A DNA stretch of 64,000 bases from an uncultured Eubacteriales bacterium. Its GTDB lineage: Bacteria; Bacillota; Clostridia; Oscillospirales; CAG-272. This document shows positions 19,637 to 61,854 of the stretch, piece after piece. The notes under the pieces were generated by a model. The model saw nothing but the letters and a program-made list of their open reading frames with translations, did no database searches and had not been told where the DNA came from. The stretch lies in contig CAJLXA010000002.1 of NCBI GenBank assembly GCA_905210485.1, positions 4,168 to 68,167 of the forward strand, in the 5' to 3' direction. The stretch's first letter is position 1, and every line of letters begins with the position of its first letter. Both the position numbers and the translations under genes were made by a program.

Positions 19637-19822
19637 TTACCAGGAAGCTTTTTTCACACCCGGAATCTCGCCCTTGTATGCGAGTTCACGGAAGCAGATA
19701 CGGCAGATGCCGTATTTGCGGAGGTACGCATGAGGTCTGCCGCAGATCTTGCATCTGTTGTACGCACGGGTAGAGAACTTCGGCTCTGCCTTCTGCTTAT
19801 TGACCATAGACTTTTTAGCCAT
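19637..19822 (-). CDS. rpsN: 30S ribosomal protein S14 type Z (zinc form)
   Basis: 61 aa with CKICGRP...CRICFRE. Confidence 0.95.
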
Positions 19823-26316: not shown

Positions 26317-26572
26317 GTTTTTTGCCTCCTGTTATATTTTTGCTCTTTCAAGGGGGCGGTTTTGGTTTCACACGCTGTCGCGCGTTTCTTTCCGTGTCAT
26401 CTAAAAACCCGAATCCCTGTCCCTCGCGGGAACCGAATTCAGGTACAGACTTCGGCGTGTGTCTTTTGCTTATCGGCAAAAGAGGAAACCGTCGCTTCGC
26501 CCATTTTCGGACATGCTCCACGAAAATTCCCCGCATATCTGCGGCAACCTCTCGCTTCTTCGCACATCAAGC
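26317..26572 (-). promoter_or_regulatory. ~256-nt GC-rich, hairpin-rich 5' leader of the S10-spc-alpha cluster
   Basis: Lies between the predicted TSS (~26572) and the rpsJ ATG. Local hairpins include CCGCA-GATA-TGCGG and CTTTTGC-CGATAA-GCAAAAG. A long-range complement pairs CACACGC (26369-26375) with GCGTGTG (26455-26461). Confidence 0.5.
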
Positions 26573-26607: not shown

Positions 26608-26968
26608 GGAATTTTTTACATTTTGACACTCCTCATATGTAGAAATTTTTAAAATATTTTTGATATTTTTTGTTCAATTTGAACAATTTTCATTGTTTTT
26701 GAAGATATGGAAAGTGATTTTTCATTTGATTTATCGTTTTTTGCGTAGGATTTCACCATTTTTTCCTCTTTTTTCATGAAGAACCGGCGCATAAACGCGT
26801 TTGTTTTCACTTTGTTCATATTTCAAAACCGTTTTCGTTGTATAATACAAGAAGGCGATTGCGGGAATCCGAAGTTTCCCTTTTGTATCGTTCTCGCCCC
26901 GCCGGCCGTTATTTCCGGCTGTCTATATAATATAAAGGAAGGTTTTCCTCGCGGAAAAGTGGTAATCC

Positions 26969-27787
26969 ATGTTCTCTTCACATTCTGAAAAACGCAATAC
27001 AAACCGTATGGCCATATGCGGAGCCGCCGCCGTCGGCTTTTTTCTTGTTCTGTTCGGCAGTTTTTTTCTTCTGTTCCGTTACGATGCTCCCGTTGCGCAT
27101 TTCACGGGGCGCTATGATAAATATCTGATGATGGCGGCCTATATCGGCGCGGCGATTCTGACGGCCTGTATGGCGCGCGGAGTCCGCGTCTCCGAAGAAC
27201 CGACCTTTCCGAAAAACAAATCGGTTCGCATAACCGCCTGTATTGCCGCTCTCTTTCTTCTCGTATTCGGCGTTTCCGTTCTTTTCTATCGCGGGACAGG
27301 ACTTGCTCTTTTTTTCTCGTTTCTGGTCTTTATCGCTGCCGTGGCCACCGCCGGCGTTATGCTGTACACAACCTTCCTCCCGACCGCACCGATAACGCTC
27401 GGTTATATCCGCGACGCGGCGACTGCGCTGACTTTACTGTTTTATGCCATGCTTCTCTATTTCGACGTATCCGAGGCCATGAATACGCCGTATAAACTCT
27501 ATACCCAACTTTCGTTCATTCTTCTTGCATTATATTTTCTTGCGGAATGTCGCATGCAGGCCGCCGAGAAACGCCCCCGATTGCGTTTCTTCATCTCCGT
27601 TTTTTCGGTTTCTTCCGCGCTTTCCGTGGCCATTCCCTCGCTTCTCTGCCCGCTTCTGCACGGCAGTTTCACAGCGCACAACCCCATCACCGCACTGACG
27701 CTTCTTGCCTTTGCCGCCTACTGCACCGCACGCCTGATCGCATTCTGCGCCTCGGATATTCCGGAAGAAAGTGAGCCAAATTCATGA
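26969..27787 (+). CDS. hypothetical multi-pass membrane protein, translationally coupled to polA
   Basis: 272 aa with about 7 hydrophobic segments. Its stop overlaps the polA ATG (ATGA, 27784-27787). Weak RBS. Confidence 0.6.
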   Translation: MFSSHSEKRNTNRMAICGAAAVGFFLVLFGSFFLLFRYDAPVAHFTGRYDKYLMMAAYIGAAILTACMARGVRVSEEPTFPKNKSVRITACIAALFLLVFGVSVLFYRGTGLALFFSFLVFIAAVATAGVMLYTTFLPTAPITLGYIRDAATALTLLFYAMLLYFDVSEAMNTPYKLYTQLSFILLALYFLAECRMQAAEKRPRLRFFISVFSVSSALSVAIPSLLCPLLHGSFTAHNPITALTLLAFAAYCTARLIAFCASDIPEESEPNS

Positions 27788-32926: not shown

Positions 32927-34045
32927 TTATTTACGGTCGCGTTCATCAAGCGCCGCCAGTCCGAGGCGAAATGCCTCCGCAACAATGCGGCGGTCTTCCG
33001 GGTCCTTGCTGTGGAAAGCACCCGACAATGTACGATAAAGTTCTCCGCGCACGCTCATATCACGCGCAAGATATTCCGCGCCTTTCAGCGGCAAAGTGTC
33101 GTCCATGATCGAAAGTCCGTAAAGACCGAAGGTTTCGCCGATGTCCGGCAAAAGAAATTCGGGCGGCAAAATCCCCTCCAGTTTCAGGCGCAGAAACGTT
33201 TCCTCGCCGTAACCGCTTTTGGCAATATAGGACTTTATGGCGGCAAACAGCGTATCGGAATCCCCGACATCGGTAAGCGTTACCGTTTCGTCAAGATAAC
33301 GCCGCGCGGAATAGGCATGAAACACAAGCGACGGTTCTTCGTTTGCCGGTACGTCAACGGTCACCGCTCCTCCGAAACCGGGCATATCGAAACTGCGCCC
33401 CTCCATGGCGCCGGGAGTAAAGATCAGCGGTTTGTTTTCGTACACCGTCATACCGACGGACGCGCTGTTTCCCGTCACGCAAATATTCGCGCCGAAGCGG
33501 CGTATCACGGCCGCCGTTTCTTCGGTATACGGCGCGGCGCAAAGAAGAACATGCGTTTTCCCGTCGTCTGCGGCGCGCATATCTCCGAAACGTTCATCAA
33601 GCGGCGGCGCGTCCGTTTTGTCACAGAATCCGTAAAACGTCACATCGGGGAAATCGAACCGCGTCGGCGCCGCTTCGCTGAAAACATACATATTCTGCGG
33701 CAGGCGCGCCGAGGCGTAAAACACGGGAAAAAGCGAAGCCTCTCCCTTGCCGGGCGCAATAATAAAATGAAGCGACGTATGTTCTTCGGCTTTTGCGATG
33801 ACAAAGGAAAGCGTGTCTCCCGTCAGAAAATCCGCGTCAAACAGATCGCCGGCAATCAGAATATACGACACACCGCTGTCCTCCGCGTCGGAAAGCATAC
33901 GCGAAAAAGAAGCGCGCGCCGCGGTGCGCCGCGCCCGCATAGATTCCGCCGTGAGACCGGCAAAAGGCGCGTCAAACCGCACGCCGCCGCATACCGTGAA
34001 TCTGACGCCGGTATCTACGGTCTCCGTTGTATTTTCATGATCCAT
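32927..34045 (-). CDS. calcineurin-like metallophosphoesterase-fold protein (YhaO/SbcD-like) with degenerate metal motifs
   Basis: YILIAGDLFD matches motif II. Start MDHENTT follows GGAAAGGAG. The ORF-track start at 34105 overlaps a terminator hairpin and is rejected. Confidence 0.6.
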   Translation of the reverse strand: MDHENTTETVDTGVRFTVCGGVRFDAPFAGLTAESMRARRTAARASFSRMLSDAEDSGVSYILIAGDLFDADFLTGDTLSFVIAKAEEHTSLHFIIAPGKGEASLFPVFYASARLPQNMYVFSEAAPTRFDFPDVTFYGFCDKTDAPPLDERFGDMRAADDGKTHVLLCAAPYTEETAAVIRRFGANICVTGNSASVGMTVYENKPLIFTPGAMEGRSFDMPGFGGAVTVDVPANEEPSLVFHAYSARRYLDETVTLTDVGDSDTLFAAIKSYIAKSGYGEETFLRLKLEGILPPEFLLPDIGETFGLYGLSIMDDTLPLKGAEYLARDMSVRGELYRTLSGAFHSKDPEDRRIVAEAFRLGLAALDERDRK

Positions 34046-34061
34046 AACAGGCTCCTTTCCG

Positions 34062-34101
34062 AAAAAGCAGAAGAACGGTTTTGGAAAGTACCGTTCTGCT
34101 G
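34062..34101 (-). terminator. intrinsic terminator inside the 5' leader, 17 nt upstream of the start codon (attenuator candidate)
   Basis: On the minus strand: CAGCAGAACGG-(12-nt loop)-CCGTTCTTCTG, 10/11 bp, followed by CTTTTT, then the RBS GGAAAGGAG. Confidence 0.65.
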
Positions 34102-34174
34102 TCATAATACTGTAGTAAAATCTGTTGATAAACTTGTATTACCCGACAAGCGAAAATACTTGCTTGCAAGGGTA

Positions 34175-34304
34175 TTTTTGCGCCGGACATCAGGGAAAGC
34201 GGGCGGCGTTAAAGCGCCGCATGAGACGCGCATCGCGTGGCTCTGATTGCGCTTCCGCGCAATCTTTCCGCTTGTATTATACCATTTTCGATAAAAGGTT
34301 TCAA
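34175..34304 (-). repeat. conserved promoter plus three-hairpin leader element, copy 1
   Basis: On the minus strand: TTGAAA (34299-34304), 17 nt, TGgTATAAT (-10 at 34276-34281), then ACAAGCG. Hairpins: ATTGCGC-GGAA-GCGCAAT (34246-34263), ACGCG-ATG-CGCGT (34226-34238), GCGGCG-CTTTAA-CGCCGC (34203-34220). Tail: CGCTTTCCCTGATGTC-CGG-CGCAAAAA. A second copy lies at 61556-61684. Confidence 0.6.
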
Positions 34305-34355
34305 TAGATTACAAAAAAAACTTGTATTTGTCCGCTTTAATTTTACAAATTTCTC

Positions 34356-34384
34356 TTGAAAAGTGCAAATATACATGGTAAAAT
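34356..34384 (+). promoter_or_regulatory. sigma-A type promoter of the MTase-like gene
   Basis: TTGAAA (34356-34361), 17 nt, TAAAAT (34379-34384). Confidence 0.55.
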
Positions 34385-34471
34385 AGTGGCAGACATTGAT
34401 TTTAATATACGGGATTCCGTCGGGCACTGAGACGGTTTTTCGATAGCAATACGGTCACGGAGGACATTTTC

Positions 34472-59727: not shown

Positions 59728-60273
59728 TTATTTAAAATATCTGTCAAGAAGTCCCTGGAACGCTCTGCCGTGACGGGCCTCGTCCTTCGCCATCTCATGA
59801 ACCGTATCGTGAATGGCGTCAAGGTTATGCTGTTTTGCCAGTTTTGCAAGATCGAACTTGCCGGCACAAGCGCCGTTTTCGGCGGCCACACGCATCTCCA
59901 GATTCTTCTTGGTCGAAGCCGAAACCGACTCTCCCAGCATTTCCGCAAATTTAGCGGCATGTTCCGCTTCTTCGTAAGCGGCCTTTTCCCAATACATACC
60001 GATTTCGGGATATCCCTCGCGGAAAGCGACGCGCGCCATCGCAAGATACATACCGACTTCGGAACATTCACCGTTGAAATTTGCGTGGAGTCCTTCCAGA
60101 ACTTCGGCGGGAATATCCTTCACGATACCCACTTCATGCTCGGTTGCATAAGACATGGTCTCTTCGGTTACCTCCACAAATTTTTCGCCGGGTGCCTTGC
60201 AAAGAGGGCAGATGTCAGGGCGAACATCGCTGACAACGATTTCGCCGCATACGGTACATTTCCATTTTTTCAT
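59728..60273 (-). CDS. rbr: reverse rubrerythrin (N-terminal rubredoxin-like domain, C-terminal diiron four-helix bundle)
   Basis: N-terminal CTVCG...CPLC. Ferritin-like ExxH motifs ([18 protein letters not shown]). Confidence 0.9.
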
Positions 60274-60304
60274 AAGTAGTTTCTCCTTTAATAAATCTTT
60301 ATTT

Positions 60305-60320
60305 GTAAACTATTGTTTAC
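60305..60320. promoter_or_regulatory. 16-bp perfect palindrome between crp-family gene and rubrerythrin gene
   Basis: GTAAAC-TATT-GTTTAC overlapping the crp-family stop codon, about 40 nt upstream of the rbr ATG. Confidence 0.4.
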
Positions 60321-60975
60321 TTTCTATTTGTTTTAATGCACTTTCCGACAAAATTTCCACTGTCCCGTGCGATACACGGATCGCACCGAGTTCCCGGAAT
60401 TTACGCAATATACGCGTAACCACCTCTCGCGCGGATCCGATATAGCGGGCGATCTGTTCATGCGTTAGGTGCAGTTCCCTGCTTTTTGTTTCTTCCGCTT
60501 CCCGAAGCAGAACGTCTGCGATGCGGCTGTCCACACTGCGGAACAAAATATCCTGCATATGCGAGGTAATCGCCGAAAACGTTTCGGATGTCATGCGCAG
60601 AATCTCACATTCGGCCGTACGGTTTTCACGCAATATGCGCGCCATTACCTGCGGCGGAACAATGTCCAACACCGTATCTGTCTCGGCGGAAAAGTACACG
60701 TCCGCGGTCACATGACGTAATATACAAACCGATGACAGCACGCAGGTCATACCGGCGGTGAGGAAGAAAATCGTCGCTTCCCGTCCCTCTTCGGACAAAA
60801 TGGAAACGCCCACTTTGCCGCCCGTCACACGCATCATGCCAAGGCACGGGTCTCCGTGAGAATGAATGAGCGTGCCGCGTTTATAAGATACGGTATACGC
60901 GCTTTCGGAAATATGTCGTTTTTCTTCTTCGGTCAGCGCCTTATAAAACGGAATATCTGTCAGCATCGTTGTCAT
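60310..60975 (-). CDS. Crp/Fnr-family transcriptional regulator
   Basis: cNMP-binding-like N-terminal domain and C-terminal HTH ARYIGSAREVVTRILRKF, with a CRP-like R-E-x-x-x-R recognition helix. Confidence 0.85.
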   Translation of the reverse strand: MTTMLTDIPFYKALTEEEKRHISESAYTVSYKRGTLIHSHGDPCLGMMRVTGGKVGVSILSEEGREATIFFLTAGMTCVLSSVCILRHVTADVYFSAETDTVLDIVPPQVMARILRENRTAECEILRMTSETFSAITSHMQDILFRSVDSRIADVLLREAEETKSRELHLTHEQIARYIGSAREVVTRILRKFRELGAIRVSHGTVEILSESALKQIESKQ

Positions 60976-60988
60976 TCCTTAGCGAATA

Positions 60989-61303
60989 TCACTGAAGAAT
61001 AAAATCGCGCAATGCTTCCTCGTCAAGGTATCCCACCGAACGGGCCGCCGTCTCGCCGTTTTTCAGAAGAACCAGCGTCGGTATGGAACTTACGCCGTAT
61101 CTGGCGGCCAGCGATTCTTCATCATCAACATTTACACGGCAAAAGAGCACCTGATCCGCATATTCTTCTTCCGCCTCTTCAATAAGCGGCGCAAGCATAC
61201 GGCAAGGGCCGCACCAATCGGCATAGAAGTCGATCAGTACCGGCTTCCCGGATTCCTTTACCGTCGTATCGAAATTGTCACTTGTAAGCGTCAGAACAGC
61301 CAT
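60989..61303 (-). CDS. trxA: thioredoxin
   Basis: 104 aa with a WCGPC active site. Confidence 0.95.
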   Translation of the reverse strand: MAVLTLTSDNFDTTVKESGKPVLIDFYADWCGPCRMLAPLIEEAEEEYADQVLFCRVNVDDEESLAARYGVSSIPTLVLLKNGETAARSVGYLDEEALRDFILQ

Positions 61304-61555: not shown

Positions 61556-61684
61556 TTTTTGCGATAGACATCAAGGAAAGCGGCGACGGTGTGCCGTCGC
61601 TTTGGCGCATGCATGTGCGCCTTGGGATTGCGCACCGCGCAATACCTACGCTTGTATTATACATCATTTCCATGAAATATACAA
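61556..61684 (-). repeat. conserved promoter plus three-hairpin leader element, copy 2
   Basis: On the minus strand: TTGTAT (61679-61684), 17 nt, TATAAT (61656-61661), then ACAAGCG. Hairpins: ATTGCGC-GGT-GCGCAAT (61627-61643), GGCGCA-CATGCA-TGCGCC (61604-61621), GCGACGG-CACA-CCGTCGC (61583-61600). Tail: CGCTTTCCTTGATGTC-TAT-CGCAAAAA. Confidence 0.6.
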
Positions 61685-61783
61685 TATTTTTTCTTGAATT
61701 TACCGCAAACCGGACTTTTTCGGGAGAAAACTTTCCCTGATTTGCTGTTCCGATGTTATTCTATCAGATATTTTTCTCGAAAA

Positions 61784-61826
61784 CTGTGACAATATCACAG
61801 AATGAAAAAGTTTTTTTGTCTATAAT
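61784..61826 (+). promoter_or_regulatory. CRP-type palindrome about 41 bp upstream of the predicted TSS, plus the -10 box of the flavodiiron gene
   Basis: CTGTGACAATATCACAG (61784-61800, 7 of 8 symmetric pairs, TGTGA/TCACA half-sites) and TATAAT at 61821-61826. Confidence 0.55.
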
Positions 61827-61854
61827 GTAATCAACAAAACCACAAAAGGATTCG

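Follow-up and report, generated by a model that had tools for sequence, protein, structure and literature searches.

The 64,000-nt window, that is, the whole stretch of DNA analysed here, carries two copies of a non-coding, hairpin-rich element which, with a probability of about 55%, is a lineage-specific, co-transcribed and amplifiable repeat of the BOX/MIRU kind, positioned in register with the -10 boxes of resident promoters. Since its units form tandem arrays at -10 boxes in front of unrelated genes, they resemble a transcribed repeat element more than a conserved riboswitch. A sequence-only reading of the window had taken the two copies for a structured RNA rather than a recently copied repeat. 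The hairpins on which that view was based are kept, but a fixed leader or riboswitch is not supported by tandem units whose number differs between strains. The element probably senses no ligand, and the 'family' proposed from these sequences is a small sample of three loci and one partial site (site 4, below).

Both copies lie on the minus strand, at 34304-34175 and 61684-61556, and each of the blocks previously described could be read out there. The sequence TATAAT followed by ACAAGCG is the same in both, and the stem of the first hairpin, P2 (ATTGCGC/GCGCAAT), is invariant between them, enclosing the loop GGAA in copy 1 and GGT in copy 2. At matching positions follow P3, which reads ACGCG-ATG-CGCGT in copy 1 and GGCGCA-CATGCA-TGCGCC in copy 2, and P4, which reads GCGGCG-CTTTAA-CGCCGC and GCGACGG-CACA-CCGTCGC, respectively. 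Each copy then has a 27-nt tail, CGCTTTCCYTGATGTC-NNN-CGCAAAAA, conserved at 23/27 positions. The unit core of copy 1 (34175..34279, minus strand), delimited by sequence and by a covariance-model match, comprises TAATACAAGCG, P2 (34246-34263), P3 (34226-34238), P4 (34203-34220) and the tail (34175-34201). That of copy 2 (61556..61659, minus strand), delimited by a covariance-model match and its fold, comprises P2 (61627-61643), P3 (61604-61621), P4 (61583-61600) and the tail (61556-61582), and stops after CGCAAAAA with no linker. At copy 1 homology runs for a further 35 nt or so past the tail, through a linker and into TAATACAAG again. This linker with the 9 nt that open a further unit (34133..34174, minus strand) is homologous to the inter-unit linkers of the arrays in L001, L091 and L108, and two more hairpins are predicted on the same strand: an A/U hairpin, P5 (34153-34178), which shares 4 nt with the end of the tail, and a junction hairpin, P6 (34133-34152), of the form CGCTTGT-CGGGTAAT-ACAAG.

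Within the 64 kb the tail pattern occurs exactly twice when 3 mismatches are allowed (0.00 expected), and TTGCGC-N2-6-GCGCAA is found in the two copies only (0.13 expected). A covariance model made from copy-2-type units scored copy 2 at 135.9 bits and copy 1 at 54.4 bits (E 1e-16), the next-best match in the window being 13.9 bits. It can be seen that this is the sole dispersed repeat family of the window.

The genes that follow the two copies are those that had been named from the sequence. Copy 1 precedes the gene for a 372-aa divergent SbcD-type metallophosphoesterase (32927..34045, minus strand), the homologues of which contain PF00149 and go by the name of DNA repair exonuclease SbcCD nuclease subunit; the gene call was confirmed in L091. 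Copy 2 precedes an operon (59728..61303, minus strand), assigned through the Pfam families of the genes called in L001-L010, of trxA (60989-61303), a Crp/Fnr-family regulator (60310-60975) and rubrerythrin (59728-60273). A third array (locus 3) stands in front of a tRNA-Ala gene, on contigs from the same samples as the trxA-locus contigs. This is a genuine tRNA according to ARAGORN, which called nothing else; the unit itself is not a tRNA-like cloverleaf, its loops being far too small. The third array means that the downstream genes have no common function, and the picture of a conserved leader is not borne out. We also considered whether the element could serve as leader to the divergently oriented gene on the opposite strand. 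The two window copies are each some 170 nt from the divergent start codons, but the upstream gene at locus 3 is co-directional, and this reading was rejected. Another candidate was a ToxI-like array: type III toxin-antitoxin systems have tandem RNA repeats and a terminator, followed by a gene for a ToxN/AbiE-type endoribonuclease. The products encoded downstream here are an SbcD-like metallophosphoesterase, thioredoxin and a tRNA.

No family in Rfam matches the element, in agreement with the failure of the sequence-only reading to place it. Scanning of the whole window against Rfam 15 at the gathering threshold gave a single match, an S10-Clostridia leader located elsewhere, and at permissive thresholds the best scores for both loci were 13-21 bits against thresholds of 55-92. 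A CUGAUG in the tail resembles the hammerhead core by eye, yet it lacks the flanking stems, and none of the hammerhead, twister and hairpin models gave a score. The exact tail pattern had 0 matches in 185,579 species-representative genomes, the covariance model had no match at 80 FprA-anchored loci from related species, and two exact patterns gave chance matches only in IMG/VR. An exact pattern searched in JGI metagenomes returned one true contig (L102) together with 7 chance matches, and a 206-aa open reading frame, used as a protein probe, returned just one additional array. This frame spans the L001 array and is judged to be spurious, as is the coding potential of the unit in general: the period is not a multiple of 3, and the frame passes through all three reading frames of the unit. 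In total the element is known from two loci in approximately 78 kb of contiguous sequence, one further contig and the partial site 4. In the sequences searched it is restricted to one uncultured human-gut Clostridia species, at three loci, and it is not a REP/MITE-like repeat scattered at random inside genes.

In sister strains the units stand head-to-tail at both window loci, with a period of 136-138 nt. Depending on the strain, 1, 2 or 3 units are assembled at the trxA locus (locus 2) and 1 to at least 2 at the SbcD-like locus (locus 1), and locus 3 has 2 or 3. These copy numbers come from short-read assemblies in which the k-mer length (k=141) is close to the repeat period and which have N gaps in L007 and L091, so that single-unit versions, including both window copies, may be collapsed arrays. 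The multi-copy arrays themselves are real, because units within one array differ by SNPs. Three sequence types of unit were distinguished across the three loci, copy 1 being type 1 and copy 2 type 2; types 1 and 3 are similar over the entire unit and type 2 is set apart. Conservation is uneven: the 5' block, the P2 stem, the tail and parts of the linker are kept, and P3 is replaced. The arrays end out of phase, 9, 14 and 104 nt into the last unit at loci 1, 3 and 2, respectively. Those at loci 1 and 3 can be viewed as whole units with a direct repeat on either side, 9 nt long (TAATACAAG) and 14 nt long, respectively. This repeat is the same as the beginning of the following unit, and none is present at locus 2. 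The sole inverted repeat, the 7-nt pair ACAAGCG/CGCTTGT, is subterminal, lying inside the unit and not reaching its ends.

All three arrays begin at the same point of a promoter, TA|TAATACAAGC, and are oriented toward the downstream gene. The sigma-70-type promoter at locus 1 (34276..34304, minus strand; TTGAAA-17-TGgTATAAT) scored 11/12 with a TGn element in the promoter scan, and its final four bases, TAAT, double as the first four of the repeat unit. The promoter that adjoins the repeat at locus 2 (61656..61684, minus strand; TTGTAT-17-TATAAT) has a perfect -10 and a weak -35, which is under the -35 threshold of the scan and hence was not listed by it. That at locus 3 is a 12/12 consensus match. 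Over the 45 nt upstream of the TATAAT, locus 1 is identical to its element-free orthologues L105 and L106 at 28/45 and 23/45 positions, whereas identity between the loci is at background (15-17/45, and 15/45 for locus 1 against loci 2 and 3). In these nearest relatives the orthologous promoter is present and the repeat is absent, and together with the lack of any homologue in searches beyond the species these empty sites speak against a conserved leader. Judged by sequence comparison, the locus 1 promoter is shown to be resident, locus 1 alone having element-free orthologues; for loci 2 and 3 a search for relatives with the same gene arrangement found none. Since the shared part starts at the -10 and runs downstream, it is a leader module that propagates and not a promoter. 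Internal units (GGGTAATAC) have no promoter of their own.

A partial match, site 4, was found on the plus strand at 26841..26863 (TATAATACAAGAAGGCGATTGCG), upstream of a 272-aa gene (26969-27787). At 20/23 positions it agrees with the beginning of a type-3 unit, and it is identical in L123, but no unit follows. Site 4 is promoter-like and contains an exact, unoccupied TATAATACAAG; it also keeps GATTGCG at the unit's distance from the -10, with the second P2 half-site absent. It does not appear to be a decayed unit with internal deletions, as gap-tolerant alignment was no better than for shuffled sequences.

The units are predicted to form stable folds (z about -2 to -3.6), that of copy 1 having a minimum energy of -41 kcal/mol (z -2.25). 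The claim that hairpin potential survives sequence change holds, P3 having been wholly replaced and P4 having exchanged G-C for A-U pairs. Across the aligned units 94.3% of cells are paired, compared with 23-48% when the partners are slid, and 8 pairs have changed on both sides. Nearly all of the covariation represents one split, between type 2 and types 1 plus 3, and P2 never covaries. Covariation that derives from one deep split does not separate RNA from single-stranded or cruciform DNA. Within types polymorphism is depleted in the stems (7/150 versus 19/164, p=0.04). P5 and P6 are 89% paired, which is not significant from the pair counts, and comparison of G.U with A.C stem changes revealed no strand bias. 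In the minimum-energy folds of both copies a helix P1 (AAGCG/CGCUU) can enclose the three hairpins, which gives a four-way junction. This junction was downgraded as the functional fold, since P1 is just 5 bp long and is rivalled by the local 7-bp P6. In addition, P1 loses one pair in type 3 with no compensation, and a start site approximately 7 nt after the TATAAT would leave the 5' strand of P1 untranscribed in the first unit. The closing helix is therefore a doubtful feature of the modelled folds. Sequences downstream of the units differ by locus, with no consistent expression platform. At copy 2 P4 and the following CGCUUUCCUU scored as terminator-like in the terminator scan. At locus 1 the minimum-energy folds have a terminator-like hairpin and U5 run immediately ahead of the metallophosphoesterase ribosome-binding site (34062..34099, minus strand). 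It belongs to the host leader, outside the repeat, and was missed by the simple terminator scan on account of a 10-nt loop and a bulge.

Counting against the preferred reading, the exact -10 register and the uneven conservation, with an invariant P2 stem and 23/27 tail positions kept, exceed what a neutral repeat would require and suggest that something specific reads the element, either a protein or the recombination machinery. We hold it to be rather improbable that the element is a new kind of promoter-homing element or leader module. A dedicated recombinase that recognises the invariant P2 hairpin and the tail, or an RNA-binding regulator, would then place or use the cassette at the boundary between -10 box and start site of strong promoters, and array length would act as a heritable, quickly adjustable dial of the expression of unrelated genes, the tRNA included.

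Somewhat less likely again is a dedicated cis-regulatory structured RNA, riboswitch-like or a protein-binding leader and sometimes tandem, with the tail and P2 as its recognition surface; as no known family matches, it would be a new one. The sense orientation directly after strong promoters at 3/3 loci agrees with such an RNA, as do the stable folds, the conservation of the unpaired tail while P3 and P4 diverge with pairing kept, the terminator-like hairpin between unit and ribosome-binding site at locus 1, and the terminator-like score of P4 with its U-rich tail. The downstream genes are unrelated, however, and one is a tRNA; strains differ in copy number; and the element is missing from the orthologous leaders of its closest relatives, as it is from every other genome that was scanned. 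Nor would one expect P2 to be devoid of covariation, expression platforms to differ at each locus, sense-strand stem changes to show no excess of G.U over A.C, or P1 to lose a pair uncompensated in type 3 and probably to have its first-unit 5' strand upstream of the start site.

About as improbable as the cis-regulatory RNA is a non-autonomous mobile element of small size (MITE/PATE/REP-like). Here a transposase or recombinase acting in trans would read DNA hairpins and target TAAT/TATAAT-ACAAG, and insertion both beside -10 boxes and at the element's own 3' end would build the tandem arrays. The empty sites in relatives, the single register of insertion at three promoters and the existence of an exact TATAATACAAG that is unoccupied are consistent with this. 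So are the integral units flanked by direct repeats at loci 1 and 3, the conserved unit ends with a variable interior and subterminal 7-nt inverted repeat, and the stem changes, which lack strand bias as those of DNA hairpins would. On the other hand, the flanking 'duplications' could equally be part of a further unit, locus 2 stops 104 nt into its unit and has neither linker nor repeat, and 3' ends in three phases are unlike precise transposition. No terminal inverted repeat extends to the ends of the unit, and the gene tables list no transposase, RAYT or integrase gene adjoining any of the loci.

The sequence-only reading had also raised the alternative of a DNA operator. In this case a repressor, of which the Crp/Fnr-family protein from the trxA operon is one candidate, would recognise (G)ATTGCGC-N3/4-GCGCAAT(C), at about +13 to +30, and the GCGCAA-like end of the tail, and units in tandem would make for a multiple roadblock. 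Repressor sites typically sit just downstream of the start site, which is where P2 would lie; its stem is invariant in all three types around a variable loop, site 4 retains GATTGCG at the same distance from the -10 with none of the rest of the unit, and a Crp/Fnr regulator gene is part of the locus 2 operon. The proposal is weakened by its spacer: type 2 has 3 nt where types 1 and 3 have 4 nt, which shifts the half-sites relative to each other. Crp/Fnr sites have a 5-N4-5 geometry (TTGAT-N4-ATCAA), to which TTGCGC-N3/N4-GCGCAA does not conform. Site 4 is without a second half-site, and an operator leaves unexplained both the 27-nt tail and the pairing of P3, P4 and P5 with differing sequences. 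We consider it an outside chance.

Least probable are independent genes for abundant trans-acting small RNAs of ~100-230 nt, one per array or unit, with downstream genes expressed by read-through: the promoters are near-consensus, the terminator-like hairpin at locus 1 would close a transcript of ~215 nt ahead of the ribosome-binding site and the unpaired C/U-rich tail could serve as a seed region, but there is no terminator after the unit at locus 2 (the scan finds P4 only) or before the tRNA at locus 3, internal units (GGGTAATAC) are without a promoter, and at locus 1, alone comparable, orthologues identify the promoter as the resident promoter of the downstream gene.

Under the preferred reading, an amplifiable repeat transcribed from resident promoters, the array would form the 5' leader of the downstream gene and each unit would fold locally, with P2-P4 as three stable hairpins rich in G+C, the pyrimidine-rich tail left unpaired, and P5 and P6. 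We infer that the array may alter downstream expression according to its copy number. A hairpin close to the 5' end, some 6 nt from the start site, could shield the transcript, or there could be partial termination or pausing at P4 and the U-rich tail. A further candidate route, at locus 1 only, is pairing of CUUUCC in the tail with the GGAAAG of the ribosome-binding site, as seen in the minimum-energy fold. We rejected the tail as a general anti-Shine-Dalgarno sequence, since locus 2 has no equivalent and the tRNA locus has no ribosome-binding site. Arrays would spread and change in size through recombination, for which the short homology next to the promoter, TATAATACAAG(..GATTGCG), would provide the anchor.

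BOX repeats are modular (boxA-boxB(n)-boxC), with an internal module that varies in number; they form stem-loops and are transcribed together with their neighbours (PMC3049150). Like BOX in Streptococcus pneumoniae and S. suis, the present element is a small non-coding intergenic repeat confined to one species or its closest relatives, with a module number that varies by locus and strain (allowing that short-read assemblies may collapse arrays here). It is likewise predicted to form stem-loops which, through predicted co-transcription, could change the expression of neighbouring genes, and its long arrays give rise to spurious annotated frames, such as the 206-aa one. There is no sequence similarity to BOX by eye, and the arrays end at arbitrary phases rather than in distinct boxA/boxC-type terminal modules with pairing inverted repeats. 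The unit is about three times the length of boxB, which is ~45 nt, and 3-4 loci are known here compared with more than 100 BOX copies per genome. BOX, RUP and REP typically prefer the 3' sides of genes, and BOX is over-represented between convergent genes (PMC3049150), whereas all known copies of the present element are at the 5' ends of transcription units, in -10 register.

The element resembles MIRU-type VNTR minisatellites in being head-to-tail, intergenic and polymorphic in copy number at several dispersed loci, with units of tens to over 100 nt. The mycobacterial MIRUs occur between genes of operons, often with short open reading frames coupled to the flanking genes. The 136-138-nt unit described here is not a multiple of 3, is non-coding and strongly hairpin-forming, and starts at a -10 box. 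With REP/BIME/REPIN sequences and the IS200/IS605-derived PATEs, which keep their hairpins by compensatory change, are clustered and presumably function as hairpins of DNA or RNA, it has in common G+C-rich extragenic palindromes in clusters, with hairpin potential maintained. However, REPs are single palindromes of 20-40 nt, usually found as inverted pairs at gene 3' ends and RAYT-linked, while here five different hairpins make up a composite unit of 137 nt, the units stand in direct tandem at 5' ends, and the gene tables of the loci list no RAYT. Tandem riboswitches and 5' leaders similarly lie between promoter and gene, with multiple hairpins, a conserved single-stranded segment and tandem units. 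They differ from the element in that it has no Rfam match, is not kept across species or tied to one gene function, is polymorphic in copy number and lacks a consistent expression platform. Putative mobile promoters (PMPs) are highly similar 50-100-nt upstream sequences before non-homologous genes of one genome (Matus-Garcia et al. 2012, PMC3488235). The three loci, which have the first ~35 nt and the 27-nt tail in common, contain at least 50 nt of at least 80% identity, as PMPs do, but their -35 and upstream DNA is locus-specific and, at locus 1, orthologous to that of element-free relatives.

If the preferred reading is correct, an uncultured lineage of gut Clostridia harbours a repeat family that had not been described before. 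Such a repeat may fool motif-discovery pipelines into riboswitch calls, and its arrays would break or collapse short-read assemblies, scaffold gaps falling exactly there, and generate spurious open reading frames of up to 206 aa. Strains would also come to differ in the 5' leaders of genes for the stress response (trxA, rubrerythrin), of a DNA-repair-like gene and of a tRNA gene. The small bacterial repeats known so far mostly shun 5' regulatory regions, and a repeat that colonises the start-site boundary would represent a new route by which expression may be rewired or tuned.

The sequence-only reading had aligned two minus-strand stretches end to end, copy 1 at 34304–34175 (locus 1, metallophosphoesterase gene) and copy 2 at 61684–61556 (locus 2, trxA-crp-rubrerythrin), and the sequence read-out returned that alignment as described, with gene contexts to match. 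TATAAT and the following ACAAGCG are identical in the two copies, as is the stem of hairpin P2 (ATTGCGC/GCGCAAT), with a loop of GGAA in copy 1 and GGT in copy 2. Hairpins P3 (ACGCG-ATG-CGCGT vs GGCGCA-CATGCA-TGCGCC) and P4 (GCGGCG-CTTTAA-CGCCGC vs GCGACGG-CACA-CCGTCGC) keep their positions and full pairing with differing sequences, and a conserved tail, CGCTTTCCYTGATGTC-NNN-CGCAAAAA, is common to both. With up to 3 mismatches permitted, a search of the window for the tail pattern still yields these 2 places and no others (0.00 expected), the P2 palindrome is found in the window only in these copies, and a covariance model for which copy-2-type units were the input scored copy 1 at 54.4 bits and all else in the window at 13.9 bits or less; the element is the only dispersed repeat family within the window. 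The weak match at 19675–19762 (minus strand; 13.9 bits, E 0.06), with a tail-like UUCCGUGA...UCGCA, was judged to be noise. No Rfam family matched the element at gathering or permissive thresholds; the sole gathering-level match in the window is an S10-Clostridia ribosomal-protein leader (RF03136, 43 bits) at 26497–26569 (minus strand).

The same loci were fetched from other assemblies of this organism, all human-gut metagenomes, using identical TrxA and an identical 372-aa protein as anchors. Across assemblies the trxA locus carries 1, 2 or 3 head-to-tail units with a period of 137 nt, and the copy-1 locus carries at least 2 in one contig (L091). In the window, the DNA 3′ of copy 1 shares homology with the linker between units, TAYCCKTGCAAGCA...ATTTT.GCT.GTCGGG, so that copy 1 comprises a full unit (34142–34279) and the first 9 nt of the next (34133–34141); copy 2 ends directly after CGCAAAAA. 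Since SNPs distinguish the units of one array, the multi-copy arrays are genuine. At the 3′ side the arrays of the three loci break off at differing phases, with 9, 14 or 104 nt of the final unit present. Many assemblies were made at k=141, near the repeat period, and single-unit versions, both window copies included, may be collapsed arrays. The repeat interferes with assembly from short reads, so the copy numbers obtained are minima or uncertain in some other way. N runs (scaffold gaps) lie exactly inside arrays in two fetched contigs (L007, ~2512–2690; L091, 2622–2720), and another, L102, terminates within an array. Public gene calls place an antisense 206-aa ORF across the three-unit array (L001, 2290–2910, minus strand; P0001 in L096, 2727–3347). 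As the ORF crosses the 137-nt units it passes through each of the three frames, and its homologues come from another array only, which marks it as a spurious gene made by the repeat. Other strains have shorter ORF calls at the array, of 58 and 67 aa.

The exact tail pattern had no match in 185,579 species-representative genomes, the unit model none in the closest representatives (80 loci anchored on FprA, protein identity up to 64%) or in relatives' orthologous loci, and IMG/VR scans gave chance matches only. A protein-space search with the spurious ORF returned one additional array and nothing else. A further ~14 kb beyond the window contained no additional locus, giving 2 loci in ~78 kb plus a third on other contigs. 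As far as these searches reach, the element is limited to this lineage, which is itself isolated, as the identity of the 372-aa protein falls straight to 46% outside the species, with a like gap for FprA (64%) and DUF4830 (66%). We favour, at a probability of about 0.55, a lineage-specific, non-coding, amplifiable structured repeat.

The two window copies have similar predicted folds (−41 and −40 kcal/mol, z about −2). In a model-guided structural alignment of 33 units (18 distinct), standard pairs occupied 94.3% of cells, vs 23–48% with partners slid. Both-sided changes were seen at 8 pairs, nearly all from one split, that between type 2 units (locus 2) and types 1 and 3 (loci 1 and 3). P3 differs wholly in sequence across that split and retains the hairpin, P4 shows a G-C to A-U exchange, and P2 showed no covariation among the 33 units, its stem being invariant and its loop variable. 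Within types, variable sites are rarer in stems (7/150 vs 19/164, p=0.04). On the sense strand A.C is as frequent as G.U among the stem changes, which therefore do not single out an acting strand or molecule. Two further hairpins are possible in the linker, the A/U hairpin P5 (AAAAUAC/GUAUUUU; both-sided change at 2 pairs) and, at the junction, P6 (CGCUUGU-CGGGUAAU-ACAAGCG); together they are 89% paired, which is not significant. Beyond the earlier description, AAGCG/CGCUU (P1) can close P2–P4 into a predicted four-way junction; P6 and the next unit's P1 draw on the same ACAAGCG, and type 3 has lost the fifth P1 pair without compensation (AAGCA). Transcription usually starts ~7 nt 3′ of TATAAT, so RNA from the first unit would begin at about GCG|G and lack the 5′ strand of P1. 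The four-way junction is therefore doubtful, and we regard the predicted string of local hairpins P2–P6 as the robust feature. Global folds of multi-unit transcripts were dominated by inter-unit pairing and uninformative. Of the proposal that this is a new riboswitch or leader, the repeated structured element stood, but a tandem unit placed before unrelated genes and restricted to one lineage speaks against it, and we consider a dedicated regulatory RNA unlikely.

A JGI metagenome scan identified the third locus in contig L102, where diverged copy-1-like units precede tRNA-Ala(CGC). Longer contigs, obtained with the next gene (DUF4830) as anchor from samples that hold the trxA locus, read ABC-transporter gene, TTGACA-16-TGgTATAAT, 136-nt units (3 in L108 and L110, 2 in L109), a 14-nt partial unit, ~100 nt, tRNA-Ala, terminator and DUF4830. 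The upstream gene is co-directional with the array, which rules out arrays as leaders of divergent genes. At both window loci ~170 nt separate the divergent start codon from the repeat's promoter end (168, 34305–34471; 171, 61685–61854), an equal spacing that may be coincidence; a second promoter-like site, TTGAAA-17-TAAAAT (TGn), is oriented towards the divergent 520-aa gene of locus 1. In the nearest relatives the gene 5′ of DUF4830 is class A RNase P RNA (234–235 bits; L114, 2497–2872; L117, 2461–2840) with promoter TTGACA-17-TATAAT, and its transcript start AAGCAGATGG is similar to the type 3 unit start ACAAGCAGATG; the source species has promoter, repeat array and tRNA-Ala at that position (L108, 5131–5743). 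The same two contigs carry ordinary TPP riboswitches, unrelated to the repeat, 5′ of a YuaJ-type thiamine transporter (L114, 1702–1803; L117, 1666–1767).

All 3 arrays have their first base at one and the same position of a −10 hexamer, within TTGAAA-17-TATAAT at locus 1 (11/12, TGn), TTGTAT-17-TATAAT at locus 2 and TTGACA-16-TATAAT at locus 3 (12/12, TGn). Around the copy-1 locus the nearest relatives keep SecG, a ~500-aa gene and the divergent metallophosphoesterase (46% and 40% identity); their orthologous site has no element, the promoter being followed directly by a ~50-nt leader and RBS, and in one of them (L106) it reads TATAATACAAC. The 45 nt 5′ of TATAAT at locus 1 match the element-free orthologues at 28/45 and 23/45, vs a background-level 15/45 with loci 2 and 3, which makes the promoter at locus 1 a resident one and puts the start of the homology between loci inside the −10 box; a search for element-free orthologues of loci 2 and 3 found none, which limits the resident-promoter conclusion to locus 1. 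Site 4 (26841–26863, plus strand; TATAATACAAGAAGGCGATTGCG) matches the type 3 unit start at 20/23 through GATTGCG and holds the fourth exact TATAATACAAG, with no unit after it. It lies 5′ of a 272-aa gene (26969–27787) divergent from the S10 operon, is promoter-like (−10 perfect, −35 poor) and is identical in one further assembly; beyond the match, similarity to the unit is no higher than in shuffles. Site 4 could be a target that no unit has occupied, a 5′ remnant standing alone, or a promoter-proximal motif that the loci share. A trans-mobilised MITE/PATE-like element targeting TAAT/−10 boxes seems improbable to us. The repeat reading accounts poorly for the exactness of the −10 register and for the invariance of the P2 stem and the tail; both suggest a specific reader. 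An array of operators bound by a repressor, for instance the Crp/Fnr protein of locus 2, is more improbable still, and weakened by a P2 spacer of 3 vs 4 nt. An independent small RNA is very improbable.

Under the favoured reading of an amplifiable repeat, the array would be transcribed as a 5′ leader and alter expression in proportion to copy number. 5′ stem-loops protect Firmicute mRNAs, and P2, ~6 nt from the 5′ end, is a candidate stabiliser; alternatively P4 with CGCUUUCCUU, flagged as terminator-like in a scan, might be a weak terminator or pause site. A third candidate route is confined to locus 1, where the tail would pair with the RBS: in the minimum-energy fold CUUUCC of the tail pairs with GGAAAG. 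A terminator-like hairpin with a U5 run (34062–34099, minus strand) lies immediately 5′ of the metallophosphoesterase RBS GGAAAGGAG (34046–34060, minus strand), and with the modelled tail pairing it could be a locus-specific attenuator. The 372-aa protein encoded 3′ of copy 1 (32927–34045, minus strand) had no Pfam match recorded; its homologues, at up to 46% identity, are annotated as SbcD-type nucleases and contain PF00149. Spread and resizing would proceed through recombination anchored on TATAATACAAG(..GATTGCG) homology.

MIRUs are intergenic VNTRs, and the present repeat is comparable in kind. It is likewise comparable to pneumococcal BOX elements, whose internal module varies and which form tight stem-loops, are co-transcribed and give rise to spurious ORFs (PMC3049150). 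Its position fits the pattern of putative mobile promoters (PMC3488235); unlike them, the propagated part here begins at the −10 box and extends downstream. As a family the repeat is new, and its position is unusual, yet in kind it falls among the known small structured intergenic repeats. It would gain in interest if it were to home systematically to −10 boxes across the genome or if a unit acted as a functional regulatory RNA.
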